A stretch of DNA of 64,000 nucleotides from a virus. Every line of letters begins with the position of its first letter. Position 1 is the stretch's first letter. Location: positions 1-64,000 of IMG/VR virus record IMGVR_UViG_3300009703_000010; one strand, given 5' to 3'. Positions 3,151-62,165 of this stretch are shown here, piece after piece. Position numbers and translations under genes: made by a program. The notes beneath the pieces are model-generated. The model saw only the letters and a list, made by a program, of their open reading frames with translations, searched no databases and was not told the DNA's origin.

Positions 3151-3153
3151 CAA

Positions 3154-20645: not shown

Positions 20646-20660
20646 AAGGGCGGTATCAAA

Positions 20661-20681
20661 AGGACACTTCCTGTCCTTTTT
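20661..20681 (+). terminator. hairpin plus T-run terminator
   Basis: AGGACA-CTTCC-TGTCCT is followed by TTTT, 16 nt after the stop at 20645. Confidence 0.55.
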
Positions 20682-20767
20682 CTGTCACTTTGACGGATAC
20701 GTAGCAATATCCCAATCTGCGAATATGGCTCCTAAACGCAGACTACGAGCCTGACAGAAAACATCAG

Positions 20768-20776
20768 TTCATATAG
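20768..20776 (+). promoter_or_regulatory. TATA-like box TTCATATAG, 21 nt upstream of the ATG at 20797
   Basis: The identical 9-mer occurs at identical spacing at 58858-58866 before the ATG at 58887. Confidence 0.5.
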
Positions 20777-20796
20777 TAACACGAGGTGGGATAATC

Positions 20797-21642
20797 ATGG
20801 CCGAGAACCATTCCGCGAAAACCGCGAGCACGATTGAACTGATGAAGACTAACCCGGAAGCATGGGGGATTGCCCCCATGACCGTCCGCAAGGAGACCCG
20901 CGACCTTCGGCTCCCGGTCAAATGCCCGGTTTGTCGAGGCAACAAATATGTTTACGGTGCAGGGCACAAAGACGGGCAGCAGTATGACCTCAGCACAGTC
21001 CACCGAGAACTCGTGGAGTCGGGCGAGACCGACTGCGATAATTACAACGACTTCGTCCGCTCCCACCGCAAGTTCACCGGATACGATGAAGACGGCAAGC
21101 CAATGGTCGAGAGCCGACCAGCAGGATGCGAGCAATTCGGATACACCCTATACGGGCATAGTGTTGAGTGCTGGAACTGCACCGGCCAGCGTGGTCGACC
21201 AACAGGCAAGGTAGTCATCCTTCACAAAGACCACCCATGCAACATTCACACCCCAGCATGGCCGGCCGGAACCGAGTTCACCAGCCGATTCAATCGCTGC
21301 GACTGCGAGGCTTGCGGCAAGAACAACATCAAGTCCGGTTGCATCCCGGTCATGGCACGAACCACAGAAGGGGGCACAGTTGGAATGTTTGTCGGCAACG
21401 CCTGCGTGAAGAGATTCGGACTCCAGCAATTCAAGACAGCAGATCAGCAGGCAAGCCGATGGATAGGCAAGGGTCTTTCATCCGGCGAGATGGTATTGGA
21501 TATTTACGAGCGCAGTTACGAAGTCCGCGAGAGCATTTCAATCACCACAGTCAGCGGCGGGGAGTTCCCTTGCCCTCACTGCGACAAAGTCTACAAATCC
21601 CGAGCCGGGCGATACAACCACTTGAAGAACTACCATCAGTGA
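20797..21642 (+). CDS. multi-zinc-binding protein with a C-terminal C2H2 finger
   Basis: It contains CPVCRGNK, ECWNCTG and CDCEACGKN...GNACVKRF modules and ends in CPHCDKVYKSRAGRYNHLKNYH. Confidence 0.65.
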   Translation: MAENHSAKTASTIELMKTNPEAWGIAPMTVRKETRDLRLPVKCPVCRGNKYVYGAGHKDGQQYDLSTVHRELVESGETDCDNYNDFVRSHRKFTGYDEDGKPMVESRPAGCEQFGYTLYGHSVECWNCTGQRGRPTGKVVILHKDHPCNIHTPAWPAGTEFTSRFNRCDCEACGKNNIKSGCIPVMARTTEGGTVGMFVGNACVKRFGLQQFKTADQQASRWIGKGLSSGEMVLDIYERSYEVRESISITTVSGGEFPCPHCDKVYKSRAGRYNHLKNYHQ

Positions 21643-21647
21643 TTATC

Positions 21648-21965
21648 ATGACTTACTATCACACCGTCACCACTTTCTCCGGTTCCCTTGATCCGGTCAA
21701 AGTTACTCACTACACCAATGCGGCGCAAGAAGCATATGTAATCACACTCCCAGCCGATGCGGTGGTTCACTACGCCGGGACATCGGCCGGAGATATGCGT
21801 AGTGCCTTCAATGCGGCCCGCAATGCCCCAACCCCCACAGGACAGGACATTCAGGATTCAATCGCGGCTACGGCCGCTCTACGGGCCATCCAACGGGTTT
21901 GTGAGTCCGACGAGATCCATACCCGTGCGCAAATCCAAGCGATAGTCGATTTTGCTGCGATATAA
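21648..21965 (+). CDS. hypothetical protein
   Basis: ORF 21168..21965 is trimmed to the ATG at 21648 (MTYYHTVTT), 6 nt after the upstream stop. The upstream part overlaps the previous gene in another frame. Confidence 0.5.
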   Translation: MTYYHTVTTFSGSLDPVKVTHYTNAAQEAYVITLPADAVVHYAGTSAGDMRSAFNAARNAPTPTGQDIQDSIAATAALRAIQRVCESDEIHTRAQIQAIVDFAAI

Positions 21966-22048
21966 GCCCCGTTCTCATTAGAGGGGGGGTAATCAGCCAC
22001 CGGAGCCAAGCACGCCCGTAGGGGCGCGTTATACAGGCCGTAACCGGC
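21963..22048 (-). repeat. dispersed intergenic repeat, copy G (inverted orientation, degenerate core)
   Basis: The reverse complement GTATAACGCGCCCCTACGGGCG..GGCTCCGGTGGCTGATTACCCCCCCTCTAATGAGAACGGGGCTTA aligns with copy C. Confidence 0.55.
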
Positions 22049-22051
22049 AAT

Positions 22052-22396
22052 CTATGCCTGTGATTCGAATAGGGCCTTGACTTCAGCAATGGTCATACCG
22101 CCGCAAGCGACCTCATGTGTGAGCCGTTCCCATTGGTCTGGATCGGGATGTCCGCCACCATGAGTCTGTTTCCATGCCATTTTGATTTGCTGTCGGATAC
22201 TTGATTTTGGTAAATCGACTTCAACCACTTCCACGACCTCTTCTTCAACGACCGTATCATCAACCACTTCTTCGTGTGGTTCATGATCAGTAAGGTGCTC
22301 GTCGAGTCGGCTCGCCAACGTTGCCTTCGTTCCTTCGGTATCTAATTCATGCTCTTCGCACAATGCGATCAATTCTTTCTTAGTTAGTTCACTCAT
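22052..22396 (-). CDS. SAP/HeH-domain protein
   Basis: It is trimmed to MSELTKKELIALCEEHELDTEGTKATLASRL, whose ATG overlaps the upstream stop (ATGA). The N-terminus is a helix-extended-helix motif. Confidence 0.55.
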   Translation of the reverse strand: MSELTKKELIALCEEHELDTEGTKATLASRLDEHLTDHEPHEEVVDDTVVEEEVVEVVEVDLPKSSIRQQIKMAWKQTHGGGHPDPDQWERLTHEVACGGMTIAEVKALFESQA

Positions 22397-28912: not shown

Positions 28913-29143
28913 TCAGAGGATGGTGCTTGCAATGATCTCGCCTGTCAGAACTGCAAACAGTGCCATCGGGATTAGCCACTTGGTCATCCGGCTTAGCACG
29001 ACTTGAGCGAGTCCCATTTTCGTTTCAACACTGGTCAGCCGTTGCGCTATCTCATTGATATCGGCTTGAATGTGGGGGAGGTGGTTGTCCCGTATGGATC
29101 TGAGATCCTCATGTATCTCTCGAATAGCGTCTTTTTGTGTCAT
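28913..29143 (-). CDS. small membrane-anchored protein
   Basis: It is 76 aa with a C-terminal hydrophobic helix (WLIPMALFAVLTGEIIASTIL). It overlaps the terminase stop by 4 nt. Confidence 0.5.
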   Translation of the reverse strand: MTQKDAIREIHEDLRSIRDNHLPHIQADINEIAQRLTSVETKMGLAQVVLSRMTKWLIPMALFAVLTGEIIASTIL

Positions 29144-30705
29144 GCTCCGAACGTCCTCATAATTGGTAACTCTCCTTCTGAACCGATAGATTGTGCGAGA
29201 AATGCATAGAGCAGCGCATGGAATGCGTGATCATCATCGTCTCGGCCATAGCGAGTGCGTGGTGTGCTGGATAAGCCGCGAGTGGTTGATTCGTCGTGCT
29301 CGCGGGTGGAGTTCAGAGCACAACACTCATCTATCACCCATTGCAGTTCATCCGTTTTCCAAGGTATCCTGACTTCATGCCTCTCAAATCTATCCATCAT
29401 TTCCTCCATGTAGGTAGTCCGATCAACGGTGACCATGTGAATGAGATTGCGCTTCGAATCGCGCTTGCTGTATTCGAACGGGGTCTTTGGTCGTGACGCA
29501 TAGTAGCAAGACCGGACGCGGTCGCCGAACTCCTCTTGAAGTTCCTTGATCTGACGTGCTCCATATCCCAAATCGGCAATGACCTGAACACAATTGTAAC
29601 GCAATATCAATCGATTGATCACAGCAACTTCATCCTCACTGCGAGTGTCTATTTTCACTGCATTCAACATAGTCCCGTCATTGTCAATAATAACCACGGA
29701 GGTTTCAGAACCCCAATCGATTCCCATGAAAGTCTCGGTTGGTGGAGTAACATGCCCGACTCGTTCCAAATCTCGATCACAACATGCCATTACAGTATCC
29801 ATCGTCAAGGGCTTGAGCCCGCCTGCATAGAACTCCCCCAAACATTCGTTCACGAACTTCCGTGTGCCGTAGGACTCCTTCTTGAACGCGAGATCGGCTT
29901 CAGTGATATCAGGGTGCATTCGCTGATCCATATGAAATCCCATCACCGAACCATCGCAGTCAAAGTTCTTTCTCTCCCATTCTTGAGTCTCCTCATTCCA
30001 GTGATTCTGTGTTGACTTATTCCATAGTTTCCAAAACGGCGACCCTTCTTCACGCGCTGTCCCGGAGACGAGCACCCATTTCCATTCACTCTGAGTGACA
30101 ATTTCCTGTATCATCTCAAGCGAACCCATTGCCATGTCTTGATACTCATCAATGCACACGAAGTCGGCATCAAGCCCCAGCAACGAATGTGCATCGCCCC
30201 ATCCTGAGTAAGCGTAGAGGTGGTTAAACCGATCAAGCCCAACATCGAAAGTCATATGGGTCACTGAATCCTTTACCAAGAACTGACTCAGACATCCTTT
30301 ATCGATGCTTGAATGGATCGCACCCTTGAATCGCTCTTCGACAAATCTACTCACTGTCGGCTGGCGGGGTGCGGTGTAAACCGCTTTGAAGTAAGGCATG
30401 TTGATCATTGAGTAAAGTAACAGGTTCAGGATGGTCTCGGTCTTCTCCACCTTGCGGCTACACTTGAGAACAACAATGCGTGGCGCTTTGCTCTCGCCTC
30501 CTTCGGGGCTAAACAAACGATAGATGGCTCGGAGGTATGGACGTTCCTCTAATGAGAAGGGGAATCCATCGAGAGTGCGATAATACGAAGCCCACCGATC
30601 CGGGAACACCGCGATATCCCGAGCATCCTTTGCTGACAGTTGAGCCTGTCCGATGGCCATGGTATGTTGGACCCGAGAACAGGTGGACAAAGGTATTTGC
30701 TGCAT
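29140..30705 (-). CDS. terL: terminase large subunit
   Basis: It is 521 aa with a Walker-B-like FVCIDEYQD and a nuclease-domain pattern (IDWGSE...). It lies upstream of the portal; the start is uncertain (alternative MAIGQAQ). Confidence 0.85.
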   Translation of the reverse strand: MQQIPLSTCSRVQHTMAIGQAQLSAKDARDIAVFPDRWASYYRTLDGFPFSLEERPYLRAIYRLFSPEGGESKAPRIVVLKCSRKVEKTETILNLLLYSMINMPYFKAVYTAPRQPTVSRFVEERFKGAIHSSIDKGCLSQFLVKDSVTHMTFDVGLDRFNHLYAYSGWGDAHSLLGLDADFVCIDEYQDMAMGSLEMIQEIVTQSEWKWVLVSGTAREEGSPFWKLWNKSTQNHWNEETQEWERKNFDCDGSVMGFHMDQRMHPDITEADLAFKKESYGTRKFVNECLGEFYAGGLKPLTMDTVMACCDRDLERVGHVTPPTETFMGIDWGSETSVVIIDNDGTMLNAVKIDTRSEDEVAVINRLILRYNCVQVIADLGYGARQIKELQEEFGDRVRSCYYASRPKTPFEYSKRDSKRNLIHMVTVDRTTYMEEMMDRFERHEVRIPWKTDELQWVIDECCALNSTREHDESTTRGLSSTPRTRYGRDDDDHAFHALLYAFLAQSIGSEGELPIMRTFGA

Positions 30706-30707
30706 AC

Positions 30708-30793
30708 GGGCTATTTAGCGCCCCGTAGGCGCGAGAGAATGGGTCAGATGGGGATTTACCCCATCTCTGATAGAAACGGGCTTAGAATGCGGG
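30708..30793 (+). repeat. dispersed intergenic repeat, copy D (core TGATAG at 30768-30773)
   Basis: Hairpin GCGCC-CCGTA-GGCGC, then GAGAGAATGG, hairpin GATGGGG-ATTTA-CCCCATC, then TCTGATAGAAAC. It is collinear with copy A. Confidence 0.7.
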
Positions 30794-30943
30794 TATTTGT
30801 CAGAGGGTGCTGCTCCTTTGAAATAGGGTCGCCAAAAACGCCGCGAGAACCATTTACTCAGTGACAGGAAGTTGTGGCCGGATCCAGTGGTGCAGTAGAC
30901 CCAGCCGGAGAGAGAAAGTTACCCTGCACGGCATAGAGTAGTA

Positions 30944-31207: not shown

Positions 31208-32830
31208 TCAAACCGCCTCCGTCTTGCCGCATCCATCCATCTCCTTCTTGAGGTGGTTGTAGCGCCCCGTAGGGCTGCGATACACCTTGCCACAGGTGCA
31301 ATCCCATGTTCGCTCTCCATTGCCCGTAGGGGCTGTGATAACGCGCTTAACTTCGACCGCTTTGATTCCAGTGATATTCTCCATGCTGCGTGCAAGGAAC
31401 TCGGTGGTGTTGACTACAAATCGTGCATCACACTTCTCGTCGGTGGTGGTGAAGTAGGGACCATGACCATCGCAGCCATTGTTGCAAGCCCATGTATGAA
31501 TCTCTTCATCGCGGTTGGACTCACGCTCGTAGTCGATTGGGTGAAGGGCGAACTTGCCGCAACCCCCACAGGTGATTGTCTCGGTGCTGTGGATGAGTTC
31601 ATCCTGTCCGTCGCGGATGCTGCGAACTGCTTGCATTTTGGTCACCCGTAGGGCGAGGCGCTGTCGGTAGGTCTCTTGGCTCCAAGGCAAGTTGTAATGC
31701 TTTGCGCAAATCGGACCGTAGCCAACCGCTGTGGATCGGTGGTCGTGGAGACCAATGCGGCAAAAACAGCACGCTCCAGTGAGGAATCCATTCTCGACTG
31801 CGGCCGCCTCTGGATCTTCTGCGACCTTGCGGGTGAACAGAACAACCCAATCCGGGCAAAGACCATTGTAGGTGAAGTCGCCTGAGGTGATGTCGATGAT
31901 TCCAAATACATGCCCGCCCTTGCGATGGGTGTTCTTGACCTCGATGATATTCGGGGTGTGTGCATCGCAGCGGAAAGTGAGTTCTGAGACTCTATCAGAG
32001 TCATCAACGGTGTGCTCGACGGTGAAGGTAACTGCCGGGCGCTTCAGCCCGGATTCCAATGCTCCCTTCATCAGTTCAGCCACGCGCTCGAATCCACTCT
32101 CGGTGGTGATAGTCTCCATGAGTGCCTGTCGCTCTGCCGCCTTCGCTCGTGCGGCTGCGTTCGCAACCATGCGCTCGGGTATATTGAGGACAATCGCTCG
32201 CTGCCTTTCAGACATGCCTGCCGCAGACATGCTGCGGGTGCAACGGTTCTTCTGATCTCGAATGAATGACTTCTCCCATGCTGTAAGATCATCGCTCTCG
32301 AGGTCGGTCTCCCATAGTATTTTGAGTGCTTCATCGGACTCCCACCAATTCGAACCATCATCTGCGGGTGCGGCCTTCTCGACCTTCGCCATGATTTTGT
32401 CCACGATGCGCTGTTGTGCGGGTGATAGGGAACGACCACGGCGGATGATATCGCCCATGAATCCCTTCTCCCAATCATTCATCACACCTGATTGTTCAGC
32501 AGTCTCTTGCAAATCCTTGAGGACTTGCTTGGTTGCCTTCGCAGCACCTGCGGTGTTCTTCTTCTCTTCAATAGTAAGGTCTCCCTTCTGTCCCTTCTTC
32601 ACCTTCAGAAGAATGCGGTCTCTGAGTGATGCTTGCTTGAAGGTTAGGTTACCTCGTCCGCGTCGGATTATATCATCAACGAAGTTTTGCTCCCACTCGG
32701 ACAGTAGGTCGCGGTGTTCGGGGATTCCACCCCCGTATCCGATCACCTTTGCGCAAGTGCGCAGCGTCGGTGTCTCCTCTTTCCAGTCGGTATCAGTCTC
32801 AGTGCTCGGGTCAGTATCTCTCTCTGCCAT
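31208..32830 (-). CDS. multidomain zinc-binding protein with three WExxF...IIRRGR repeats, a DUF6011-like CxxC...GxGxxC block and a C-terminal C2H2-like finger
   Basis: Repeats WEQNFVDDIIRRGRG, WEKGFMGDIIRRGRS and WEKSFIRDQKNRC; CCFCRIGLHDHRSTAVGYGPICAKH; terminal CTCGKVYRSPTGRYNHLKK. Confidence 0.6.
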   Translation of the reverse strand: MAERDTDPSTETDTDWKEETPTLRTCAKVIGYGGGIPEHRDLLSEWEQNFVDDIIRRGRGNLTFKQASLRDRILLKVKKGQKGDLTIEEKKNTAGAAKATKQVLKDLQETAEQSGVMNDWEKGFMGDIIRRGRSLSPAQQRIVDKIMAKVEKAAPADDGSNWWESDEALKILWETDLESDDLTAWEKSFIRDQKNRCTRSMSAAGMSERQRAIVLNIPERMVANAAARAKAAERQALMETITTESGFERVAELMKGALESGLKRPAVTFTVEHTVDDSDRVSELTFRCDAHTPNIIEVKNTHRKGGHVFGIIDITSGDFTYNGLCPDWVVLFTRKVAEDPEAAAVENGFLTGACCFCRIGLHDHRSTAVGYGPICAKHYNLPWSQETYRQRLALRVTKMQAVRSIRDGQDELIHSTETITCGGCGKFALHPIDYERESNRDEEIHTWACNNGCDGHGPYFTTTDEKCDARFVVNTTEFLARSMENITGIKAVEVKRVITAPTGNGERTWDCTCGKVYRSPTGRYNHLKKEMDGCGKTEAV

Positions 32831-32852
32831 GTAATCCTCGACCCCTTGACAG

Positions 32853-32860
32853 ATAATAAA
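32853..32860 (-). promoter_or_regulatory. TATA-like box (minus strand TTTATTAT), 23 nt upstream of the ATG at 32830
   Basis: The minus strand reads TTTATTATCTGTCAAGGGGTCGAGGATTACATG, the same architecture as at 37860. Confidence 0.55.
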
Positions 32861-32987
32861 GGGTCTGCATCCATGCCCTCGAATAAAGCCGGTTCAGTGA
32901 CGGAAGTAGGTGGGGGGTGGTGGAGAATGAATGGGATGTCCATGACTGAGAGAAAGTCGTTGAACCACCACCGCCCCGTGAATATGA

Positions 32988-33377: not shown

Positions 33378-33942
33378 AACGAGTCCTCCCCACGTATTTC
33401 AAGGCAAAGGAAGAGTCATGACGCCCCCGTCCATACGCCATACAACACAATTTACACGCTGTCCCTTGAGGAAGCATCCTGTCAGTCTTGATCTCAATAC
33501 TGCATTCGGGGCATTTGTAGATATGAACAATTGTCCTATCCACCGCCAACCGCTCGGATTCATCTCGGAACACCCGGAGACAATCCCTGAAATCAAGCAA
33601 GTGTTCCCACCCCGATTCATATTCTTCAAATGTGGAATCATGACCGTGCTCGGGGATCAGGAGATGCACCATTTCATGGTTGATAATTCCCTCAAGGATG
33701 AATACCCAGCCCTCTTCGAAGGCGACAGGATTGATCGCTATCACCAATCCGTGCTTCGTTTTTTGTGCTTCACCATAGCATCGCCAGCGATCCAGCGGCA
33801 AGTATCGCCACTTGACCCATAATGGGTTCTCAGGTAAGTCGGCAAGGAAAGGATTCTGTCTGCGTAGGCCGCCGTATAACGTGCAGGCAAGTGCAAGGTG
33901 TTCTCTATTGAGGCTCATCCGGTGTTGGCTCATTCTCTTCAA
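33289..33942 (-). CDS. SprT-like zinc metalloprotease with a C-terminal zinc ribbon
   Basis: It has the HExxH motif INHEMVHLLIPEHGHD followed by CPECS...CKLC. Confidence 0.6.
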   Translation of the reverse strand: MKRMSQHRMSLNREHLALACTLYGGLRRQNPFLADLPENPLWVKWRYLPLDRWRCYGEAQKTKHGLVIAINPVAFEEGWVFILEGIINHEMVHLLIPEHGHDSTFEEYESGWEHLLDFRDCLRVFRDESERLAVDRTIVHIYKCPECSIEIKTDRMLPQGTACKLCCMAYGRGRHDSSFALKYVGRTRFGHGRQRDPDPEEANEQRTETSDTRGDPA

Positions 33943-34438: not shown

Positions 34439-34723
34439 TCAGTCACCTCTCACGGGCTCAACGCCTGCGGTGCGCTTGCAGTAGCGGTAGCGTCCCTGTC
34501 GGGTCAAGAAGCGGCGGCCATCGGTGCAAATCCATACTGCACCCTGCTCAATGTTCGGATGCTCCTTGAACACGCGCCAAGTCGAGCGCACCCTATTCCG
34601 CTTCGGCAATGCCTTCACGGTCGGGTCGGTCTTCATTGCGGCGTGTGCCTTATCTGCGGGGAGATCCCCGAAGAGGCGGAACAACCGCTTCATCTCATTT
34701 TGGCTGGTTTCTTTTTCGGCCAT
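34439..34723 (-). CDS. hypothetical basic protein
   Basis: It is a 94-aa ORF. Confidence 0.45.
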   Translation of the reverse strand: MAEKETSQNEMKRLFRLFGDLPADKAHAAMKTDPTVKALPKRNRVRSTWRVFKEHPNIEQGAVWICTDGRRFLTRQGRYRYCKRTAGVEPVRGD

Positions 34724-37837: not shown

Positions 37838-37859
37838 GATTGCTCCGACCCCTTGACAC

Positions 37860-37867
37860 TTAATAAA
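37860..37867 (-). promoter_or_regulatory. TATA-like box (minus strand TTTATTAA), 23 nt upstream of the ATG at 37837
   Basis: The minus strand reads TTTATTAAGTGTCAAGGGGTCGGAGCAATCATG. Confidence 0.55.
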
Positions 37868-37878
37868 CTCTCTGACAT

Positions 37879-38985: not shown

Positions 38986-38989
38986 GTTT

Positions 38990-40700
38990 GACGGTCTCAG
39001 TGACTATCTATGAACCCGCCGTGATGCCCCCAAGTAAACGCCGATGCTAAATCCATCGAGCGCATTCGCGGACAGTCCTTCGTGGATATCCAAACGTCAT
39101 GAAGACTCGGGGACTCGCTTCGAAGAATGAATTGAGGTTAGGGCACCGGTGCCGATCCCCCATGTTACCTCAAAGGGGTGTCCCCCTTACCGGTATGTTG
39201 TTGTGAAATAATTGGTAATGTAATAGAAGAAGGACTCGATATCAAACGGGGACCGGAGACGGGGTGCTGCGCTTGCGGACTCGATGTGAATATCCATTTT
39301 CTGTCAGACGGCATACAAAAAAACGAGACTCAGATTTTGAGGATAGTGGATGGCGGCGGCGGCGCGCCGATGGTGCTGGCTCGACACGGCGGGGGGTCCC
39401 CACCCTCTCGGACTCTCCATGATACCGAACAATTTTCTTTACTCCCCCAGCACCGTGCTGCACATGATCACGAACTCTCTCGCGCCCCTCTGATGTGTCC
39501 ATACAAACGACCCCCCCGTGCTTGCTTTGCAGCCCAGCCCAGCAGCCATGTCAATTCTTCCTTGATTATCCCACTCGCTTGAGATCAGACGGAAATATGT
39601 GCAGAAAAAAGGATTGTCTAAACGCTATACTGCTCGCACGTTTTTTGTGGGCCAATCCTGACAACTCTGTGAAACTCGAGGGGGGTGATATCCCCACTCC
39701 CCCATCCCCCCCCTCCCTCGTGCTGCACGTTGTTGTGAGGACTCGCTAAAATCAGCCAAAATCGCATATCACGTAAACAACGTATCGACACGTAGCCGAC
39801 GTTGTTGTGTAGACTTTGTGATGCGCCCCTATTATTGGAACCACGTAAACATCGTCGACTACGTGCTGGTCCGTTGTTGTGATCGTTTACGACCCAGCCC
39901 AGCAGCCCAGCCCAGCCCAGCCATACAGTAGCCGTAGACGCCCCCTGCTGCGATTGTTCAGCACTGGTGGGTTAATCCCCCCCCTCTGACAGAAACCGCC
40001 CTTAGATGCGCTCTATTCCATCCTGTTCCCGAGTTGCCTGATCGCCGTGATGGATCGCGTCAGACGTCAATATCGGACCCGGCCGTTTTGTCATTGACAA
40101 ACGCTGCACTGCTCGCTCGGACCCGCTTATCGTCGCTTGATCGTTGGTCCACAATCACCCGGCCAAAATGTCATTCACGCATCGCTGGATCCCCGGCCTA
40201 AACGCTGCACTGCGGCCTCGTCACATTTCCGATTTATGTATCCGATAGTCGCAACCTCATGCAAACCATCACAACCATCGACAACCTCGTGCGCACGTGG
40301 ACCAACGAGGCCATCGAGATTTGAGTCAGCGACTCATAGGAGCGGAGCCCCTGTTGGGGCGGGCGCCGGGACCTGTATCCACCATTTCTGTCATATGGGA
40401 TTTGCCGATTTCTGCGAATGCTATGGTTACCGCTCAGATTCATTGTCAGACACACCATAGTCTTCGGGTTATCAGCACAATGCCTCGTAACGCCTCCTAT
40501 ACCGTCCGTATACGCTCTGAATTGCATTGGATGGACTCCAACCCCACTTCCTGATGAATCGCCGTAAATCGCAGCAAATACACCGGCTCTGAAACGTGCA
40601 TATCCGACTTTACTCAATGGCCTACTTTTTGACCATAGGTTGTGGCCGTGTTTTCATGGCAACCTTGCCATCAAATCGGGCTCACAAATTATGAGAGAGC
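38990..40700. other. 1.7-kb repeat-rich non-coding block (candidate replication origin, packaging site or regulatory hub)
   Basis: It holds no convincing ORF. CGTTGTTGTGA occurs 4 times, TAAACGCTRYACTGC 3 times and CCCAGCCCAGCAGCC twice. CACGTAAACA repeats are present, there is a direct repeat of about 45 bp at 40078 and 40158, and C/G homopolymer runs are frequent. Confidence 0.6.
39931..40013 (+). repeat. dispersed intergenic repeat, copy B (core TGACAG at 39987-39992)
   Basis: GCCCCCTGCTGCG...CTGGTGGGTTAATCCCCCCCCTCTGACAGAAACCGCCCTTAGATGCGC aligns with copies C, A and D. Confidence 0.65.
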
Positions 40701-40703
40701 GGT

Positions 40704-41393: not shown

Positions 41394-41562
41394 CTCTCAT
41401 TCCTCATTGGTGGTGTCTGATCTAACATCGGATTTGAAGTCGCCTTGACTCCCCATATCGCCCCACATTTCGCCAGCACCTACAGTATGTCTGAAAGCGG
41501 TGACACTTATGAACCCACCCGAATCGGCATCCTTGCTCGTGGGGATTAGCGTTCAGTGACAG

Positions 41563-41652
41563 TTAACGCCCGTTTAAGCGGCCATAGCCGCGAGAGAATG
41601 GATTGGGGGTGTAAATCCCCCACCTGACAGAAAGCACCCGCTATGCGCAGGC
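41563..41652 (+). repeat. dispersed intergenic repeat, copy A (core TGACAG at 41625-41630)
   Basis: TTAACGCCCGTTTAAG, then hairpin GCGGC-CATA-GCCGC, GAGAGAATGG, hairpin GGGGG-TGTAAAT-CCCCC, then ACCTGACAGAAAGC. Confidence 0.7.
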
Positions 41653-41664
41653 TATTGGGGCATT

Positions 41665-41790
41665 TCACGCCTTATGGTGGATCCGCCATTCCTTCGCTCG
41701 GCGGACGTGTTTGTAAAGACCCTGACGAGTCCGGAATCCTTTGCCGCAAATGCAATAGTGAAGGTCTGAATCATGTTGTGGTGGACTCAT
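41665..41790 (-). CDS. stand-alone C2H2 zinc-finger mini-protein (41 aa, not in the ORF track)
   Basis: Hand translation gives MSPPQHDSDLHYCICGKGFRTRQGLYKHVRRAKEWRIHHKA. Its ATG overlaps the upstream stop (ATGA). Confidence 0.5.
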   Translation of the reverse strand: MSPPQHDSDLHYCICGKGFRTRQGLYKHVRRAKEWRIHHKA

Positions 41791-42072: not shown

Positions 42073-42855
42073 TCATTGGTGGTTCTTCTTCATGTGATTG
42101 TATCGGCCCTGTCGGCTGCCGTATTCCTTGCCGCAATGCTCGCAGACGAACTTGCCTGCTGTGGGCTTGCTGATTGTAACGACCTTCTTCGGGGTGTGGG
42201 TGCCTGCAATCATTGACTGTGCTGTCTCCATTGTCTGCTTGCTCATCTCCCATGCTTCCTGCTCCCACGGCCAGTTTCGGTAAGTCTCCCATGTGTGGGT
42301 TTTGTTCTTGATTGTTACCTCGTCTGTGTAAGATCGGTGACCATCAGTTCCATCCCACTCGCCGGAGAAAGTGTAAACCCACTTCTGTCCGTTGTAGCGG
42401 GTGTGGCATCGGCCGCTGCTGAATTGGTCGACATGAATCATCTCGTGCGCAAGTGTCTCTCTCCACTGCGCCTGCTCCCGTGCTATTTTGTTCTCTTCGC
42501 CCTGAACTCCTGCTCGCCAATCACCGTATGCTTTTGCTCGGTTCTGTGCGTCCTTGATTCGAACCCAAAAGTTGCGGTTGAGGGCAACCCAATGGTCGGC
42601 GCCATCGCCTCTCCATTGATTCTTGATTTGTCGGTGGGTGCCGCGTGTTCGGCGACCGGGTCCGAAGCAACCCATGTTGGTCGCTTCCTTACCACCGAGA
42701 TAGAAATTGATACGAATACCGGCGGGCAAATCGAGGAGTTCTGTGAGGACTTTGACCTGTTCCATGACCTCTTTTCGGGCTACTGCTCCCACGTGTGACT
42801 GCACTTTGAGGACCTGTCCCTTGCTGGTGATATGTGTTTCCGCTGTTTTCGCCAT
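42073..42855 (-). CDS. SprT-like metalloprotease with a C-terminal C2H2 zinc finger
   Basis: It has the HExxH motif LAHEMIHVDQF and ends in CEHCGKEYGSRQGRYNHMKKNH. Confidence 0.6.
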   Translation of the reverse strand: MAKTAETHITSKGQVLKVQSHVGAVARKEVMEQVKVLTELLDLPAGIRINFYLGGKEATNMGCFGPGRRTRGTHRQIKNQWRGDGADHWVALNRNFWVRIKDAQNRAKAYGDWRAGVQGEENKIAREQAQWRETLAHEMIHVDQFSSGRCHTRYNGQKWVYTFSGEWDGTDGHRSYTDEVTIKNKTHTWETYRNWPWEQEAWEMSKQTMETAQSMIAGTHTPKKVVTISKPTAGKFVCEHCGKEYGSRQGRYNHMKKNHQ

Positions 42856-42916
42856 GACCCTACGAGGGGTCTGTCCTATATGAACTGTAGTTAAGTGTCA
42901 GTCTCGTAGTCGCCTG

Positions 42917-43777
42917 TTAGGAGCCATCCTTCAATTTGCCCCTTTCGTGCCGGAAATATCCCTCATTCTCTGTTTTCATGGGTAAATCATCGAAAATACG
43001 TCCCCATGCCCGATCCTGAATTGGTGTTGCTTCCCTTTCGAGTGAAAGAGGTTCAGTTTTCATAATGGACTTCCAATGCTCCATAGCACCGGGCGCAATA
43101 TCATTCATCACAGCCAACCGTCCAATACTTCGTGCCACCTCATATACAGTTCCGGATCCGGCCATGAGGTCACCTACCACATCTCCCTCATTGGTTGATG
43201 CAACAATACAACGTCGAACCAATTCAACAGGTAATTGATTTGCCCATTCCCTGAAACCCACTGATACGTTTTTTCGCATATTGATCTCCCACCAATCATA
43301 CGAGTTCCGACCCGAAGACCCGTTGCCGATTCTCTTGAGAATGCGCTTACAATCTGCATTCTTGTAGTCCTCCTTTATTCTGTCCACAAAGAACTCTGCA
43401 TCGCCACGAACGAGCCAAAGCACTGCCCGTGTTGCTGTCGTGAACCGGGCCTCGGTAATTCCAATGTTGGATGGGTATACCCATGATATCCACTGGTGGA
43501 ATGTCCATCCTGCCCGTTCAAGGGCGGGAAGCAATCTCGCGGTTTGCTCAGGATAGTTAATCATGAACAAAGAACCATCGGGGGTGCTTTCCGCCATCTT
43601 TCGTGCACACGCCTCCATCTGCTCTTCATACTCTTCGAATGAAAGGGAATCAGTGATGGTCTCATATCCAACATAGCCAATGTTGTAAGGCGGATCGAAA
43701 ATCCACGTTTTCACATTGTGCTCACATTTGAACTCAAGTGCGTCGCCAATAACTGCCTGCAAGAGTTCTGTGTTCAT
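42917..43777 (-). CDS. DNA methyltransferase (N6-adenine or N4-cytosine, beta class)
   Basis: DPPYNIGY (motif IV) lies near the N-terminus and MAGSGTVYEVA (motif I) near the C-terminus. Confidence 0.8.
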   Translation of the reverse strand: MNTELLQAVIGDALEFKCEHNVKTWIFDPPYNIGYVGYETITDSLSFEEYEEQMEACARKMAESTPDGSLFMINYPEQTARLLPALERAGWTFHQWISWVYPSNIGITEARFTTATRAVLWLVRGDAEFFVDRIKEDYKNADCKRILKRIGNGSSGRNSYDWWEINMRKNVSVGFREWANQLPVELVRRCIVASTNEGDVVGDLMAGSGTVYEVARSIGRLAVMNDIAPGAMEHWKSIMKTEPLSLEREATPIQDRAWGRIFDDLPMKTENEGYFRHERGKLKDGS

Positions 43778-49751: not shown

Positions 49752-50840
49752 ATGCCTGAATTATTAACTGGAGACCTGAAACTGATTGCAGAGGATTGGA
49801 GGCGTCAGGGAGCGCATGGTGACATGCCTGCCGCGCTCTTTGAAAGCATTACTTCGGGTGCTCGGGGTTGGGAGAAGCGTGTGGTGAAGAATATCGCATT
49901 CAAATCGGTTCTCTTCATGCCTGACGGCACCGTCAAGAATTGGAAACAAATTGTCTCTGATTGGAAATACGTCAATTCAGTCTATGGCAAGAAGACATTT
50001 TGCTACGCTTGTGGTAAGAACCCCATTGTGGAGAATTGCATTATCCGCAACCGCGAGACCCTTGAGGAAGTGATCATCGGCAATCTATGTGTGATACGCT
50101 ATCTCGAGATTGAGGTTGATGGGGTGTTGCTCACTGAAGCAGAGAAGCGCGAGTTTCTAACCGGGCAAATGACCGAAGCACGCAAAGAGTATCTCCGGCA
50201 ACAATTCATGGAGAAGTGTCCGTCTGTATGGGATGATCTCACAAAGTTCGAGGATACTTTACTCGCGATTGAACCGTCACTACACAAATCCATGATTCGC
50301 CGGTTACGATCTCATGGGTTTCCGGGCAAGGTATTGGAACTTCGTTGGCTCAAGTTCTTATCGAAGGCTGATGGCTTGAAGCAGGCGCAGGAGTTTGCGA
50401 CACAGAAACGCCGTGAGCGAGAAAGTCAAGTGCGTGAAACGATGCGATCTCGAGCAGCAAATCGGTCGGCACGGATGGAACTCGTGCGAGCCCAAAGACG
50501 GGAGAAGGCAGCACAAATCGTTGAGATGTTGGATGAACCTGACTTCTATGCAACCGCTGCCGAGAGACAACGGTTAGTATCCCTGTCCAAACGAATGGAG
50601 CAGGGTGGTATCATGGAACAGACTGATCATTCTTTACTTGCCACGCTTGAGTGCAGGCATGAGAATATCGAAGCCGGGCCACAACCGGATGATGATCCTG
50701 ATATTGCTTTCCTGTGGACGCTGGATACAGAACCATTGACTGATGCCGAGCGCACTTTCAGGTGGATTGTGATAGGCAAAGGGTTGATTGAACAGGGCGA
50801 TAGGTCCCAAGTGAACCGGATGAAAATCCGTTACGGCTGA
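49752..50840 (+). CDS. hypothetical protein with a CxxCGKN...GNxCVxRY zinc module
   Basis: It is trimmed to MPELLTG. FCYACGKNPIVENCIIRNRETLEEVIIGNLCVIRYL parallels the module in 20797..21642. Confidence 0.55.
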   Translation: MPELLTGDLKLIAEDWRRQGAHGDMPAALFESITSGARGWEKRVVKNIAFKSVLFMPDGTVKNWKQIVSDWKYVNSVYGKKTFCYACGKNPIVENCIIRNRETLEEVIIGNLCVIRYLEIEVDGVLLTEAEKREFLTGQMTEARKEYLRQQFMEKCPSVWDDLTKFEDTLLAIEPSLHKSMIRRLRSHGFPGKVLELRWLKFLSKADGLKQAQEFATQKRRERESQVRETMRSRAANRSARMELVRAQRREKAAQIVEMLDEPDFYATAAERQRLVSLSKRMEQGGIMEQTDHSLLATLECRHENIEAGPQPDDDPDIAFLWTLDTEPLTDAERTFRWIVIGKGLIEQGDRSQVNRMKIRYG

Positions 50841-50855
50841 TACTTGCTATGTATG

Positions 50856-50930
50856 CCGCTCGTATACGCGCGTTAGCGGCTCCGGTGGGTAAATCATCCA
50901 CCTCTGACAGGAAACGCCCTTAAACGGGCT
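50856..50930 (+). repeat. dispersed intergenic repeat, copy C (core TGACAG at 50905-50910), between convergent gene ends
   Basis: It reads CGTATACGCGCGTTAGCGGCTCCGGTGGGTAAATCATCCACCTCTGACAGGAAACGCCCTTAAACGGGC. Confidence 0.7.
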
Positions 50931-50938
50931 GTATTTAC

Positions 50939-51400
50939 TCAATTATGGAACGGCTTTGTTTCGCGGTATGCGGGTGCAAGGCTGGCCCAGTCCGGCTGTC
51001 CCCAAAACAAAGAACCATCTCTGCGGTTCTTGCGAAGGGTCATCGGCTGCCCTCTACTATCAAGTTCAACGCTTGGTGACAGAAGAAGGAGATCACGGAT
51101 TCGGCTACGCAGACGGTCTTGGATTGCATCCACCCCGCCGACACGGTTGATTCTCTTGGTGTGGCTGATGATATGATCTGCACCCGCCCACTTGGCGAGC
51201 GCAAGCACCTTAACAGCATCCTTACCAACGGATCTGCTTTGCCGCCCTTCGATGCTTGAATAGACCCGGATGAAGTGCCGGTAATTGTAGCGGTATTCGT
51301 AGACTCGCTCTTTGACTCCAGTTATCACAACCGGGACAAAGCCAAGTGGTGTCAGGGTGTCTTCGATTTCATCAACAGTGATTGGTGTGTATGTTGCCAT
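50939..51400 (-). CDS. hypothetical protein
   Basis: It is a 153-aa ORF and the last gene of a short minus-strand operon. Confidence 0.5.
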   Translation of the reverse strand: MATYTPITVDEIEDTLTPLGFVPVVITGVKERVYEYRYNYRHFIRVYSSIEGRQSRSVGKDAVKVLALAKWAGADHIISHTKRINRVGGVDAIQDRLRSRIRDLLLLSPSVELDSRGQPMTLRKNRRDGSLFWGQPDWASLAPAYRETKPFHN

Positions 51401-51894: not shown

Positions 51895-51927
51895 TCTCTC
51901 TCTCCAATACTTCGCACCCCCTGACAC

Positions 51928-51935
51928 TTAATAAA
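51928..51935. promoter_or_regulatory. TATA-like box TTAATAAA in a divergent intergenic region
   Basis: The minus strand reads TTTATTAAGTGTCAGGGGGTGCG, the same box plus TGTCA(A/G)GGGG as at 37860 and 32853. Confidence 0.45.
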
Positions 51936-51994
51936 GAATCTGTCAGAACGCCCTCACTCCAGTCCTTTTCATGGTGGGGGAATAAGGTAGCAAC

Positions 51995-54076: not shown

Positions 54077-54165
54077 TTGTGAATCAATAGCCTCTCCACT
54101 TTTGCTGCTTTTCCTCACAGCATGCGACCTCAAGCGGCTTTCCGGAGTTGGCGGTTACCGTCATG

Positions 54166-54317
54166 TGAGGCCGGTGGGATTTGCGCCCACTAAGACCAAA
54201 GAATGTGAAATGAGGAATAGGATAAGGTGATTCTGAGGGGTGGCCGCCGGGAGTTGGAACCCGGAGATGCTTACTGTTGGATCATGATACACCGTTTTTC
54301 AGGACTCGCACCGGCCT
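54166..54317 (-). ncRNA. tRNA-like element 1 (about 150 nt): 7-bp acceptor-like stem plus T-arm-like hairpin, non-canonical interior
   Basis: On the minus strand, GGCCGGT (54310-16) pairs with ACCGGCC (54169-75). The T-arm-like hairpin is GTGGG-CGCAAAT-CCCAC (54174-90), and an internal hairpin CCGGG-TTCCAACT-CCCGG lies at 54247-64. No D or anticodon arm was found by eye. Confidence 0.35.
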
Positions 54318-54394
54318 AATTCACAGGCGGGTTGCATGCCCGTTAACCCTGCTTCAAGCCACCCATGCCGGACATACCGGACATAGAGATTGAT

Positions 54395-54498
54395 TCGGGG
54401 ATGGGACTCGCACCCACTCGCTGCATCGCCTTCTACCAATACTCGGGACCCTCACCTTGCGGCGGTCACCCCTTCGAGATGCTTCATTGATTCCCCGC
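54395..54498 (-). ncRNA. tRNA-like element 2 (about 104 nt): acceptor-like stem, D-loop-like string and T-arm-like hairpin
   Basis: On the minus strand, CGGGGA pairs with TCCCCG. It also carries GAGTATTGGTAGAAGGCG (D-loop-like) and GTGGG-TGCGAGT-CCCAT (54401-17). No anticodon arm lies at the canonical distance. Confidence 0.35.
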
Positions 54499-54531
54499 TA
54501 AGGTTCACTCTACATCCATCTACCCCCCTCG

Positions 54532-54599
54532 AGGGGCGGTGGGATTTGAACCCACTCTTCCGATACACTCTCTGAATACTGATTAGGACTCGCGCCCCA
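54532..54599 (-). ncRNA. tRNA-like element 3 (about 68 nt): 6-bp acceptor-like stem plus a perfect T-arm
   Basis: On the minus strand, GGGGCG pairs with CGCCCC. The T-arm GTGGG-TTCAAAT-CCCAC lies at 54539-55. The interior is about 5 nt too short and has no anticodon stem. Confidence 0.4.
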
Positions 54600-54622
54600 T
54601 CAGGTCTCCCTTTGAAATAATT

Positions 54623-54700
54623 GATTGTGGTTTAGTAAACCCTGAGAATTGGAACTCGTTACCGCCTGTTGGTGCTATCAGGATAGGCGACCCCACAATC
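54623..54700. other. 78-nt segment closed by an 8-bp stem (GATTGTGG/CCACAATC), a structured-RNA candidate
   Basis: Direct reading. Internal hairpins GGTTT-AGT-AAACC and GAG-AATTGGAA-CTC are present, but it does not fold as a cloverleaf in either orientation. Confidence 0.3.
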
Positions 54701-54937
54701 CAAGACAGTTATTCTGATCCGGTAATCTGGATCCTCCGATTTTCAACGCGCCTGCTCTTGGACTATGAGGTTCAGTTCCCCACGTTCAAATGTTGCCCGC
54801 CGGTTAAACCGACACCTCGAGCCACGCTCGGGTAATTTGTCCGACCCCATGTGTCCTCATATACTTTCTGTCAGGAAGAGTATCCCCGCATAGTGAATTA
54901 CACCGTCTTCATAGGGGTGGGGGTAGAAGGCACTGTT

Positions 54938-58750: not shown

Positions 58751-58857
58751 TAGGGGCGACCTTTCCCGGACGGGGCATGACATTCGGCAGGCAAGCACCC
58801 ACGTCTCCACCTACTTTTTCTCTAATCCCCCTACGGGGGGTTGACACTAAACTACCG

Positions 58858-58866
58858 TTCATATAG
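58858..58866 (+). promoter_or_regulatory. TATA-like box TTCATATAG, 21 nt upstream of the ATG at 58887
   Basis: It is the same 9-mer at the same spacing as at 20768, followed by GTGTCAGGG. Confidence 0.5.
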
Positions 58867-58886
58867 AACAATAGTGTCAGGGATTC

Positions 58887-59351: not shown

Positions 59352-59485
59352 AAGGGTGAGATCCATTACTAAAGAAACCTATACAATCGACGGGCAGGAT
59401 TATTCCTGTATTGATGCTGAATGGGCTATGCGCACTTCAGCGGGACTACCAATCATACTTCTTCGCCCTGCTGATGGATATTAGT

Positions 59486-59600
59486 GTTTAACGCCCGTTA
59501 ACGCCCCATAGGCCGCGTCTAACCTCCTTTGCCCCCCCAATCCCCACGAGGGTGCCAAATGGCCGTATACGCGCGGCATAGGCTCCGCACTCTAATCTAC
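59486..59600 (+). repeat. dispersed intergenic repeat, copy F (rearranged)
   Basis: GTTTAACGCCCGTTAACGCCCCATAGGCCGCG aligns with the start of copy A. GGCCGTATACGCGCGGCATAGGCTCCGC aligns with copies C and E. Confidence 0.55.
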
Positions 59601-61003: not shown

Positions 61004-61244
61004 TGGCGACCTATATGATCCAAAGGCCGGTAAATTAGATGTCCCCGGAGCCGAAGAAGCACTTGGTATTGACGAATCAAGCCGCGAATATCTCCGGCAT
61101 GTTGCACTGATACGAATCATACAGCAGCGACTTGATATCACCGAAGCAGAAGTTGACCAACAATATGAGGAAGAACTCAAGCAACAGTTACGGGACGCGC
61201 GAGACTCCATTGAATCCCTCGTGAGGGGGGGTTTGGATGAGTGA
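60996..61244 (+). CDS. hypothetical acidic helical protein
   Basis: It is an 82-aa ORF that overlaps both neighbours by 8 nt. Confidence 0.45.
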   Translation: MTNGDLYDPKAGKLDVPGAEEALGIDESSREYLRHVALIRIIQQRLDITEAEVDQQYEEELKQQLRDARDSIESLVRGGLDE

Positions 61245-61707
61245 TACGAGAAAGCGATACGTCACTTGGACAGAATTATTTAACCGGTGCAGGTTGCTTG
61301 CAGAGCAAATCCACGAGAATGGTGAGCCCGTTCATCTCACAGCGATTGCACGAGGCGGCTGGGTTCCTGCACGGTTGATCGGTGGGTATCTCGAGGCACA
61401 GGGAATCCGCGTCAGTTACAGCACTATCCACGTTCATTCATATGATGATTCAAACCAACAGAAGGCGGTGACCATCACTGAACCTCAAATCTATGAGCCA
61501 CCACATAGTGAACAGTGGTGGCTCATAGATGATTTGGTTGATAGTGGAAATACCGTTGAAGCACTTCTGACAGAAATATACAGAACCCCTCGTCTTGCTG
61601 TTGTGTTCTACAAAACCGAATCATCAGTTACTCCTGAATTGTATGCTGAAATGACCGCCGCTGATGAGTGGATTGTATTCCCCTATGAGACGGAGGCACG
61701 TGAATGA
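61237..61707 (+). CDS. gpt: xanthine-guanine phosphoribosyltransferase-like protein
   Basis: YVTWTEL..., IARGGWVPARL, SYD..NQQ and the PRPP-binding motif WLIDDLVDSGNT are collinear with E. coli Gpt as I recall it. Confidence 0.7.
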   Translation: MSDTRKRYVTWTELFNRCRLLAEQIHENGEPVHLTAIARGGWVPARLIGGYLEAQGIRVSYSTIHVHSYDDSNQQKAVTITEPQIYEPPHSEQWWLIDDLVDSGNTVEALLTEIYRTPRLAVVFYKTESSVTPELYAEMTAADEWIVFPYETEARE

Positions 61708-62165
61708 GACTGAGCCCTAATTTCTTTTCAACCAAGACCTACGGTCATGAAAGGGGTTTATCCTGCGCATTCAGACAATGGAAAGCGGATAGCCACTGCA
61801 ATCTACTACACGGCTATTCCCTCTCATTCTCATTCACCTTTGGTGGATATGTTCTCGATGAAACGAATTGGGTTGTCGACTTTGGTGACCTGAAGCCGTT
61901 GGAGCAATGGTTGAGAGATAACTTCGACCATACAACAGCAGTCGCATACACTGACCCGCACTACGGCATGTTCACCGAGATGTCTGAAAAGGGACTCATC
62001 GATATGGTTCCTGTCGCGGCAACCGGGTGCGAGATGTTTGCATTGATGGCATTCGACTTCGCCACCGATTTGATCGCTAAGAAGTATGGTGAGCGATGCT
62101 GGGTCGAGAGTGTTGAAGTTCGTGAGCACGGCGCAAATAGTGCCATCGTCAAGAGGTTGGACTGA
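61704..62165 (+). CDS. queD: 6-carboxytetrahydropterin synthase (QueD/PTPS family)
   Basis: It contains TYGHERGLSCAFRQW..SHCNLLHGYSL..VVDFGDLK..FDHT. Note HGY where the E. coli enzyme has HGH. Confidence 0.7.
   Translation: MRLSPNFFSTKTYGHERGLSCAFRQWKADSHCNLLHGYSLSFSFTFGGYVLDETNWVVDFGDLKPLEQWLRDNFDHTTAVAYTDPHYGMFTEMSEKGLIDMVPVAATGCEMFALMAFDFATDLIAKKYGERCWVESVEVREHGANSAIVKRLD

Follow-up and report, generated by a model that had tools for sequence, protein, structure and literature searches.

A dispersed composite repeat at gene ends of an uncultured tailed phage, a possible boundary element of transcription units

Introduction

What is the role of a stretch of about 105 nucleotides (nt), built of small hairpins and A/T-rich boxes, that recurs between the genes of an uncultured tailed phage? 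The question is raised by the locus 41557-41664 of IMG/VR record IMGVR_UViG_3300009703_000010, of which we analyzed positions 1 to 64,000 (hereafter the window), a 64,000-nt stretch that makes up most of an 81-kb genome with 51% G+C. In uncultured phages, nearly all of whose proteins are unknown, repeats that are intergenic and specific to a lineage offer some of the few regulatory signals that can be read. An original prediction, made from the letters of this DNA alone, had described a dispersed family with two covarying hairpins at module boundaries, acting as transcript punctuation that is possibly recognized as tRNA-like or, alternatively, serving as recombination hot spots. Here, we delineate the family, describe how its copies are built, where they lie, and how far close relatives conserve them, and we tentatively propose, with rather more doubt than confidence, that it is a composite, lineage-specific boundary element of transcription units (a terminator or an insulator), probably working with a sequence-specific factor.

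Results

Identification of the repeat family

A dispersed, non-coding, intergenic repeat family with approximately seven copies exists in this phage. A mechanical repeat search linked the copies through the pairwise repeats D3, D6, and D13 (for example, 39961-40017 versus 50879-50935, 57 nt at 79%), and the core CTGACAGAAA, allowing at most one mismatch, occurs 13 times against 3.9 expected, a count reached in none of 100 shuffles. Five full copies of ~105 nt each were delineated by a covariance model and profile hidden Markov models, and all five were recovered by leave-one-out nhmmer searches with E-values between 4e-6 and 1.4e-12. A model built from the copies of three relatives only found four of the window copies (E 8e-8 to 5.5e-6). 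The repeat search, the core enrichment, and the leave-one-out models thus bear out the predicted dispersed intergenic family, and the hairpin sequences quoted for it are present in the window exactly as given. Its unit, originally put at ~85 bp, is in fact ~105 nt long and is bounded at each end by an A/T box. No further full copy was found in the 10 kb scanned to the right of the window. The copies and their recognizable parts are as follows (E-values of full copies are from the leave-one-out searches).

41557-41664, plus strand: the originally flagged full copy (E 4e-6), between minus-strand genes; box A GTTTAAGC 41572-41579, hairpin 1 GCGGC-CATA-GCCGC 41578-41591, GAGAGAATGG 41592-41601, hairpin 2 TGGGGG-TGTAAAT-CCCCCA 41604-41622, core CTGACAGAAA 41624-41633, third hairpin 41636-41652, TATTGG 41653-41658.
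30698-30805, plus strand: full copy (E 8e-11), ~40 nt upstream of the ATG of the terminase large-subunit gene (30660, minus strand); hairpin 1 30718-30732, hairpin 2 inside an extended palindrome 30744-30770, core CTGATAGAAA 30767-30776, box C 30778-30793, TATTTG 30794-30799.
39919-40025, plus strand: full copy (E 5.9e-10), within a 1.7-kb non-coding, repeat-rich region (38986-40703); non-hairpin variant GACGCCCCCTGCTGCG at the hairpin-1 position, hairpin 2 GGTGGG-TTAAT-CCCCCC with one T-C mismatch.
50845-50943, plus strand: full copy (E 1.4e-12), filling the convergent junction of genes 49752-50840 (plus) and 50939-51400 (minus); hairpin 2 50884-50902, third hairpin GCCC-TTAAAC-GGGC 50916-50929 with the flanks GGAAAC and TGTATTTA.
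21942-22049, minus strand: full copy, inverted (E 1.3e-7), filling the convergent junction at which the plus-strand island (ends 21965) meets the head-gene operon (22052-22396, minus); hairpin 1 CGCCC-CTAC-GGGCG 22013-22026, hairpin 2 poorly formed.
1078-1158, minus strand (forward form): diverged copy (E 3.4e-4), between two plus-strand genes.
3101-3156, plus strand: partial copy (E 0.004).
59466-59600, plus strand: degenerate copy with rearrangements, lying upstream of the gene for the HNH endonuclease, not significant alone.
40483-40581, plus strand: weak candidate degenerate copy (E 0.065-0.09), in the large non-coding region.

Several of the lesser copies required amendment of the original prediction. 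The copy that it placed at 1085 is real, and its orientation had to be corrected to a forward form on the minus strand; on the plus strand, this copy carries CCCCCCCTGACACATTTG at 1122-1139, which matches the terminase-sense form in relatives. At 3107, only the 5' arm is present, that is, box A plus the hairpin-1 variant GCCGTTTAAGCCGCCCCTGCTGCG at 3108-3131. The sequence at 59486 has a 5' flank and box A in common with 41531-41571 and does not reach significance (E 0.6-9); it is nevertheless credible as a degenerate copy, because a copy can be detected at the matching locus of relatives (L048 14213-14302, E 1e-4; L047 18119-18150). The bare core reported at 20752 is instead the -35-like hexamer of a separate promoter-like family (see below). 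Weak extra pieces lie at 40483-40581, 21856-21886 (minus strand), and 33868-33888.

Anatomy of the element

Read in the plus-strand consensus orientation of the original prediction, the element begins with a GC-clamped A/T box (GTTTAAGC, TATTTAGC, or GTATAC), continues with hairpin 1 or with the fixed string CGCYCCCTGCYGCG that replaces it, and then has GCGA-N3-AATGG. These parts are followed by hairpin 2 (H2), in which an A/T loop joins a G-rich to a C-rich arm, by (CT)CTGACAGAAAC, by a second GC-clamped A/T box (TTAAAT, TTAGAT) that in some copies lies within a 3- to 4-bp stem, and by TATTTG. In several copies, hairpin 2 is the center of a longer palindrome, AATGnGTCAGGTGGGG...CCCCACCTGACnCATT, and the unit is therefore roughly symmetric, with two arms alike in design; the palindrome lacks one outer half-site in about half of the copies.

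The A arm comprises a CATTC block, either a small hairpin of G and C only or the fixed motif CGCYCCCTGCYGCG, and a TTTAA/TATAC box clamped by GC, and the C arm comprises CTGACAGAAA, a GC-clamped TTAAAT box (a 3- to 4-bp hairpin in some copies), and TATTTG. The arms are interchangeable at orthologous loci. The junction between the head genes and the island reads A-H2-C in the window versus A-H2-A' in the relative L036, and the helicase-operon junction has the build C'-half H2-C in L047 and L048. Solitary modules occur at 3101-3156, 21856-21886, and 33868-33888.

Structure, covariation, and coding potential

Hairpin 2 outperformed shuffled sequences in six to seven of nine copies, with free energies of -7 to -15 kcal/mol, and was weak or absent in 21942-22049 and in L032. 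Hairpin 1 did so in four of the nine, and the short third hairpin in three. No consistent fit of hairpin 1 to UNCG or GNRA tetraloops was observed. Folding of the whole element gave z-scores of -1 to -3 in three window copies and ~0 in the other copies and in relatives. We looked for a strand asymmetry through G-U pairs, which would tell the strand that folds as RNA, and found none, the mean folding z being alike on both strands.

The original prediction held that two hairpins covary and that structure is conserved above sequence. In a model-fitted alignment, a small sample of 12 distinct rows, 83.5% of cells were paired versus 81.8% in shuffles; pairing was as high in 193 of 500 column shuffles, and the covariation score was reached by 133 of 500. 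Pairing is no better than in shuffles because the stems are mostly invariant G-C pairs. Isolated compensatory swaps do occur in hairpin 1 (GCGGC/GCCGC, GCGCC/GGCGC, CGCCC/GGGCG). Covariation therefore lacks statistical support, and the second half of the claim is unsupported as well: only the central GC hairpin is usual, and conservation is dominated by sequence blocks and the extended palindrome.

The element is non-coding. No open frame is common to all copies, each frame meeting a stop in at least one of them, and the alignment contains indels of 1 and 2 nt.

Nor is the element tRNA-like, contrary to the recognition once suggested for it. ARAGORN reported no tRNA gene in the whole window, Rfam gave no match at gathering thresholds, and the hairpin-2 loops TGTAAAT, ATTTA, and GTAAATCAT do not fit the T-loop consensus. 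The block at 54.1-54.6 kb, to which the element had been likened, shares with it a GGTGGG...CCCAC hairpin only (nhmmer E 2.5). On its minus strand, this non-coding block of 861 nt (54077-54937) has pieces that resemble a T-arm and an acceptor (GTGGGTTCAAATCCCAC); it also has three GGACTCGC(A/G)CC repeats. ARAGORN calls two tRNA-like genes in it (c54238-54329 and c54531-54612) only at 80% of the normal threshold, and its best Rfam value is E ~5. The block looks like an insertion, since it is absent from L047, where a 42-nt gap is found instead.

Placement among genes

The left part of the window holds a lambda-like late module on the minus strand that runs from the terminase large-subunit gene (29140-30660) through portal, protease, capsid, tape measure, and tail genes down to 3154 and is split by a plus-strand island (20100-21965). 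Early and replication genes, including those for a helicase, a PD-(D/E)XK nuclease, and an HNH protein, occupy 31-64 kb. Approximately 25 of ~35 scanned proteins had no family match. A search of cultured phages for near-identical DNA gave no close match, and the best cultured terminase, from Bacillus phages, is only 30% identical, too little to point to a host. Relatives were found in metagenomes only, many of them marine.

Using junction classes from a simple gene map of the window, we found the element in three of five convergent, none of five divergent, and four of 58 co-directional junctions (hypergeometric P = 0.006). The three convergent junctions are those listed for 50845-50943 and 21942-22049 and the junction 3102/3154 at the end of the tail-gene operon, which is filled by 3101-3156; a fourth (33823-33904) contains a solitary A-arm box. 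Five of the seven copies overlap the stop codon of the upstream gene or begin within ~13 nt of it. The element bounds the right end of the plus-strand island and precedes the terminase gene, and its degenerate copy precedes the HNH gene. The original prediction had named these three sites and had concluded that the element is not simply a promoter and sits at the boundaries of modules or transcription units; both statements agree with the junction counts.

The four co-directional copies (1078, 30698, 39919, and 41557) have the same form on the sense strand, namely the reverse complement of the plus-strand consensus, and the co-directional polarity is 4 to 1 when the degenerate HNH copy is included. 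In the sense form, the small hairpin precedes the conserved core, which reads UUUCUGUCAG, and the pyrimidine-rich CCAUUCUCUC comes after hairpin 2.

The copy upstream of the terminase gene also touches on the start of that gene, which most likely is the ATG at 30660, rather than the start of the longest open reading frame (ORF) at 30705, because relatives align only from the downstream ATG. None of the relatives examined has a Shine-Dalgarno sequence at the terminase start.

Conservation in related phages

Four relatives with terminases 73-80% identical (L002, L030, L032, and L036) keep the element upstream of the terminase gene, and L001, L033, and L038 have a more diverged version there. The close relatives also keep it at both convergent junctions examined (head/island and helicase-operon), and in L002 an additional copy lies ~9.8 kb upstream of the terminase gene. 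All relatives have the genes around the copies in a conserved order. In the distant relatives L040 and L042 (terminase 55-58% identical), no element was detected. A limited scan of IMG/VR with the pattern CTGACAGRAR...TTARA...TATT returned 25 matches, approximately the chance number, none of which held a copy on rescanning with the model. One strict pattern scan of GTDB with the terminase-upstream variant returned a single chance match, inside a Bacteroidales gene. The family appears to be restricted to this phage lineage.

Relatives also have solitary perfect hairpins of the form GTCAGGTGGGGG-CAT-CCCCTGAC directly after a gene end (L002 5997-6021, L030 5983-6001, L032 2985-3003). These resemble the center of the element without its arms.

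Terminator and promoter signals

The small hairpin and its flanks scored as an intrinsic terminator (hairpin at or below -5 kcal/mol, tail score of -3.4 or better) in 41557-41664, in 50845-50943, and in L030, the last two in both directions. The terminator scan also marks 41652-41636 on the minus strand, and 50845-50943 is the most terminator-like copy, again in both directions. The tails 3' of hairpin 2 are pyrimidine-rich and are not U-runs. The intergenic DNA of the window is nearly free of canonical terminators (two hits, one inside the element), so the convergent junctions have no other terminator candidate. A plain intrinsic terminator was rejected as an explanation, since a stem with a U-rich tail is present in three of nine copies and canonical terminators adjoin the element in relatives.

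A consensus scan for a -35/-10 pair at a spacing of 16-18 nt gave no match in any copy, the distance from CTGACN to the A/T box being 21-24 nt. Inspection by eye likewise revealed no consistent spacing for a sigma-70, sigma-54, extracytoplasmic function (ECF), or Bacteroidetes-type promoter. A cos site for the lambda-type terminase was also discarded, because the enzyme would then cut the genome at five to seven dispersed copies.

A separate promoter-like family, (C/T)TGACA-N15-TATAG(T/G/A), occurs at 20751-20776 (plus), 42876-42927 (minus), and 58842-58870 (plus). It adjoins gene starts, 20-25 nt upstream, and two of its copies have a longer upstream block in common (52 nt, 81%). CTGACA/TGTCAG is the second most intergenic-enriched hexamer of the window and is also found in palindromic sites at promoter regions. 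A palindromic motif, CCCC(T/C)TGACAC-TTAATAAAG-N4-TGTCAG, lies at 32841-32870, 37848-37877, and 51916-51945 of the window, at L047 12138-12253, and at L044 ~14850. It stands beside gene starts and in a divergent region, is conserved in one relative, and looks like an operator overlapping a promoter.

C2H2 zinc-finger tails near the element

Five ORFs of the window end in the C2H2-type motif CxxCGKxYxSRxGRYNH(L/M)KK, with hits to Pfam that remain below the cut-offs. Their positions are as follows.

41665-41790, minus strand: 41-amino-acid ORF with a C2H2 zinc-finger-like end (CGKGFRTRQGLYKHVRR), motif 41698-41748, stopping 1 nt from the flagged copy.
31229-31306, minus strand: zinc-finger tail.
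42076-42150, minus strand: zinc-finger tail.
21565-21639, plus strand: zinc-finger tail.
34472-34534, minus strand: zinc-finger tail.

At three of the five full copies, a zinc-finger-tailed ORF ends within 450 nt upstream on the sense strand, and the probability of this association by chance was roughly estimated at ~1e-4. Two tails have no nearby element, and four copies have no nearby zinc-finger ORF. Proteins that are otherwise unrelated carry the motif as their C-terminal tail, it is also found as tiny ORFs standing alone, and in many cases it lies shortly upstream of the repeat element; the same tails are frequent in relatives (L044 17608-17676; several sites in L002, L030, L033, L036, and L038). 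The association may reflect a trans-acting partner of the element, or merely a duplicated gene end together with its downstream sequence.

Other features of the genome

The region 38986-40703, which holds one full copy, spans 1.7 kb with no convincing gene and several short repeat families (CGTTGTTGTGA in three to four copies; CACGTAAACAACGT, GCAGCCCAGCCCAGC, and AAACGCTGCACTGC in three copies each). L038 and L039 have a gene-free stretch of ~2 kb at the matching place, and the region may be an origin or a control region. A set of 7-deazaguanine (queuosine-precursor) genes lies at 61237-62165 and in the right flank beyond the early genes (L044 11808-14674), and the right flank also has a family-B DNA polymerase gene. 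The set encodes a phosphoribosyltransferase, PTPS/QueD, GTP cyclohydrolase I, the radical SAM protein QueE, and QueC, which suggests that guanine is modified in the DNA of the phage. A 15-nt unit, AAGGCGATGATGGCG, stands in seven tandem copies at the left extreme of the window (1-105); this array is probably an assembly break point.

Discussion

Proposed role and alternative explanations

We infer that the copies end or insulate transcripts and that a factor takes part in this. Transcript punctuation, as originally proposed, is still the best general reading of the positions, stripped of tRNA-like recognition and of action as a plain terminator, neither of which is supported. The element would stop or insulate transcription coming from the upstream unit, and would do so right after stop codons, at convergent gene ends, and ahead of the late (terminase) operon. 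On the sense strand, UUUCUGUCAG would serve the small hairpin as a U-rich tail, and the CCAUUCUCUC tract would follow the central hairpin. A phage or host factor would recognize the sequence blocks; such recognition is probable because these blocks are better conserved than the stems.

Several observations weigh against a boundary element of this kind. A decent stem with a U-rich tail exists in only three of nine copies, hairpins 1 and 3 are missing from most copies, whole-element folding in relatives is no better than in shuffles, and covariation is not significant. The conserved blocks outside the stems (GAATG, CTGACAG, TTAAAT, and TATTTG) are unexplained by a simple terminator, and polarity is opposite in the degenerate copy near 59486 and in its counterpart in L048. 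The upstream gene and the element are separated in L002 and L030 by a strong canonical terminator (12- to 13-bp stem with a U-run) that directly adjoins the element (L002 9800-9880, L030 9770-9830), and in L047 a canonical hairpin with an A8/U8 flank (11185-11215) lies beside it. Because of these neighbors, the element is not needed for termination in the three relatives, which makes it something beyond, or different from, a plain terminator.

The main rival, which we consider rather unlikely, is a cluster of putative DNA sites for a sequence-specific protein, possibly the phage C2H2 zinc-finger proteins, that would serve as a roadblock, silencer, or regulator at unit boundaries in the manner of stoperators. 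Sequence blocks that outdo the stems in conservation, the extended imperfect palindrome at the center, and modular arms that differ at orthologous loci are consistent with protein sites, and so are variants within genomes: CCCTGCYGCGATGGAATG and CGTTAAATCGC are common to the L002 and L030 copies and GCGAGAGAATGG to two window copies, and the two L002 paralogues are 65% identical versus 46-62% across genomes. The intergenic enrichment of CTGACA/TGTCAG, also seen in the palindromic promoter-region sites, and the zinc-finger ORFs within 450 nt of three full copies, one of them stopping 1 nt away, point the same way. However, the zinc-finger hits fall below Pfam cut-offs, two tails lack an element and four copies lack a zinc-finger ORF, about half of the copies miss an outer half-site of the palindrome, and a gene end duplicated by shared ancestry with its downstream sequence could yield the association without a functional link. 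Still less likely in our view is a single system of repeat and zinc-finger tails, in which the tails are predicted to bind the CTGACAG/GTCAGGTGGGG palindrome and the GC-clamped TTAAAT boxes as roadblocks that set unit boundaries, or in which a tail-plus-element cassette spreads to gene ends. Such a system would amount to stoperator-like insulation in a lytic marine phage by means of a eukaryote-type zinc finger.

Three further explanations appear improbable. The location at 3' gene ends, the mostly constant polarity, and the usual presence of the central GC hairpin would suit a site of RNA processing or stabilization, at which the hairpins guard the 3' end of the upstream message or are cut by a host RNase or, in a variant, are seen as tRNA-like by RNase P or tRNase Z. 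We give this only a small chance, given that tRNA-like features and strand asymmetry in folding are absent, covariation is not significant, arm orientation changes between orthologous loci, and stems of 5-8 bp are much shorter than those of RNase III substrates, which have far longer stems. An equally small chance is left for a recombinogenic or mobile mosaic repeat resembling repetitive extragenic palindromes (REP) and bacterial interspersed mosaic elements (BIME), which would mark sites where modules are exchanged and would have no transcriptional role of its own. The mosaic build from few modules, the solitary modules in the window and the solitary GTCAGGTGGGGG hairpins in relatives, the arm swaps and inversions that vary between orthologous loci, as recombinogenic modules would, and an indel beside the terminase copy (an 87-amino-acid ORF in the window versus a terminator in relatives) can be cited for it. 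Gene order around the copies is nevertheless conserved in all relatives, and a locus kept across 20-27% terminase divergence argues for selection. Inspection revealed no terminal inverted repeats or target duplications, although no dedicated search for them was run; no transposase-like protein was present among the proteins scanned, with no match to RAYT-type transposases in Pfam for ~30 proteins; and the strict GTDB scan (a chance match in a coding region) and the 25 IMG/VR matches yielded no copy. Family searches of the flanking proteins found no regulator, sigma factor, antiterminator, or transposase. A very slim chance remains for an activator-dependent (late) promoter with the central palindrome as activator site ~50 bp upstream of the start and the terminal A/T box (TAAATA, TTTAAT, TTAAAC) as the -10 element. 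All close relatives keep the element ~40 nt upstream of the terminase start, the terminator that precedes it in L002 and L030 means that a promoter for the late operon must lie no more than ~240 nt farther downstream, the 1078-1158 copy lies 43 nt upstream of the next gene, and A/T boxes stand ~38 bp to either side of the dyad center. Yet at the three convergent junctions a promoter would fire antisense, none of five divergent regions has a copy, the 21- to 24-nt distance from CTGACN to the A/T box leaves no -35/-10 pair at 16-18 nt, and the phage's own promoter-like family looks different.

As it stands, this is a well-defined element of an ordinary feature type for which we infer a role. If it marks transcript boundaries, it would provide a transcription-unit map of an 81-kb marine phage without a cultured host, as well as a sequence tag by which relatives could be found; were it read by a zinc-finger protein, it would be a new kind of phage transcription insulator.

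Comparison with known systems

Bidirectional intrinsic terminators at convergent gene ends are a general feature of bacteria and phages. The element resembles them in lying between convergent genes and right after stop codons, in the GC-rich stem-loop that is usually present, and, in three copies, in an A-rich tract before and a U-rich tract after the small hairpin. It differs in that most copies have no proper U-tract, or no stable stem beside one, in its ~100 nt of conserved flank, and in the canonical terminators that adjoin it in relatives.

The REP and BIME repeats of enterobacteria are chromosomal, occur in hundreds of copies, are mobilized by RAYT transposases, and have been linked to mRNA stabilization and termination. 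Like them, the element combines imperfect palindromes and linker motifs into a mosaic whose order and orientation vary, located at 3' ends and between convergent genes, whereas it resides in a phage genome in ~7 copies, with no such transposase found and no bacterial copies in the limited GTDB scan. The antitermination sites nut of lambda and put of HK022 have one orientation and lie downstream of promoters. Together with the RNase III sites of T7, they are, like the element, repeated intergenic hairpin signals on phage transcripts; the element, in contrast, lies at convergent ends, flips its arms between relatives, and has no Rfam match.

The stoperators of Cluster A mycobacteriophages are 13-bp asymmetric repressor sites spread across intergenic DNA that stop elongation (PMC9283540, PMC6550527). 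The element is likewise specific to a phage lineage, dispersed between genes, and mostly constant in polarity relative to transcription, and it has a -35-like hexamer (TGTCAG/CTGACA) beside a G-rich run; clean sites of the short C-rich-CTGACA motif are too few for a stoperator-style analysis of orientation. Unlike stoperators, it is ~105 bp long, composite, and partly palindromic, it has ~7 copies rather than 24-30 or more, its binding is putative, and no sign of a repressor, an integrase, or lysogeny was found in the phage. The 17-bp palindromes of Cluster O (TGTTCGGNNNCCGAACA) and the start-associated sequences of Cluster K with their extended inverted repeats have a function still unknown in the literature (PMC4351075, PMC3203893). 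The element is much longer than these repeats, has no sequence similarity to them, and is found at gene ends, whereas the Cluster K sequences accompany translation starts and one in three Cluster O sites is intragenic. It shares with them restriction to a lineage, dispersal, the presence of inverted repeats, and location at the same genes in related phages. Comparable lineage-specific repeats are thus already known in mycobacteriophages, in the form of stoperators, Cluster O palindromes, and Cluster K start-associated sequences.

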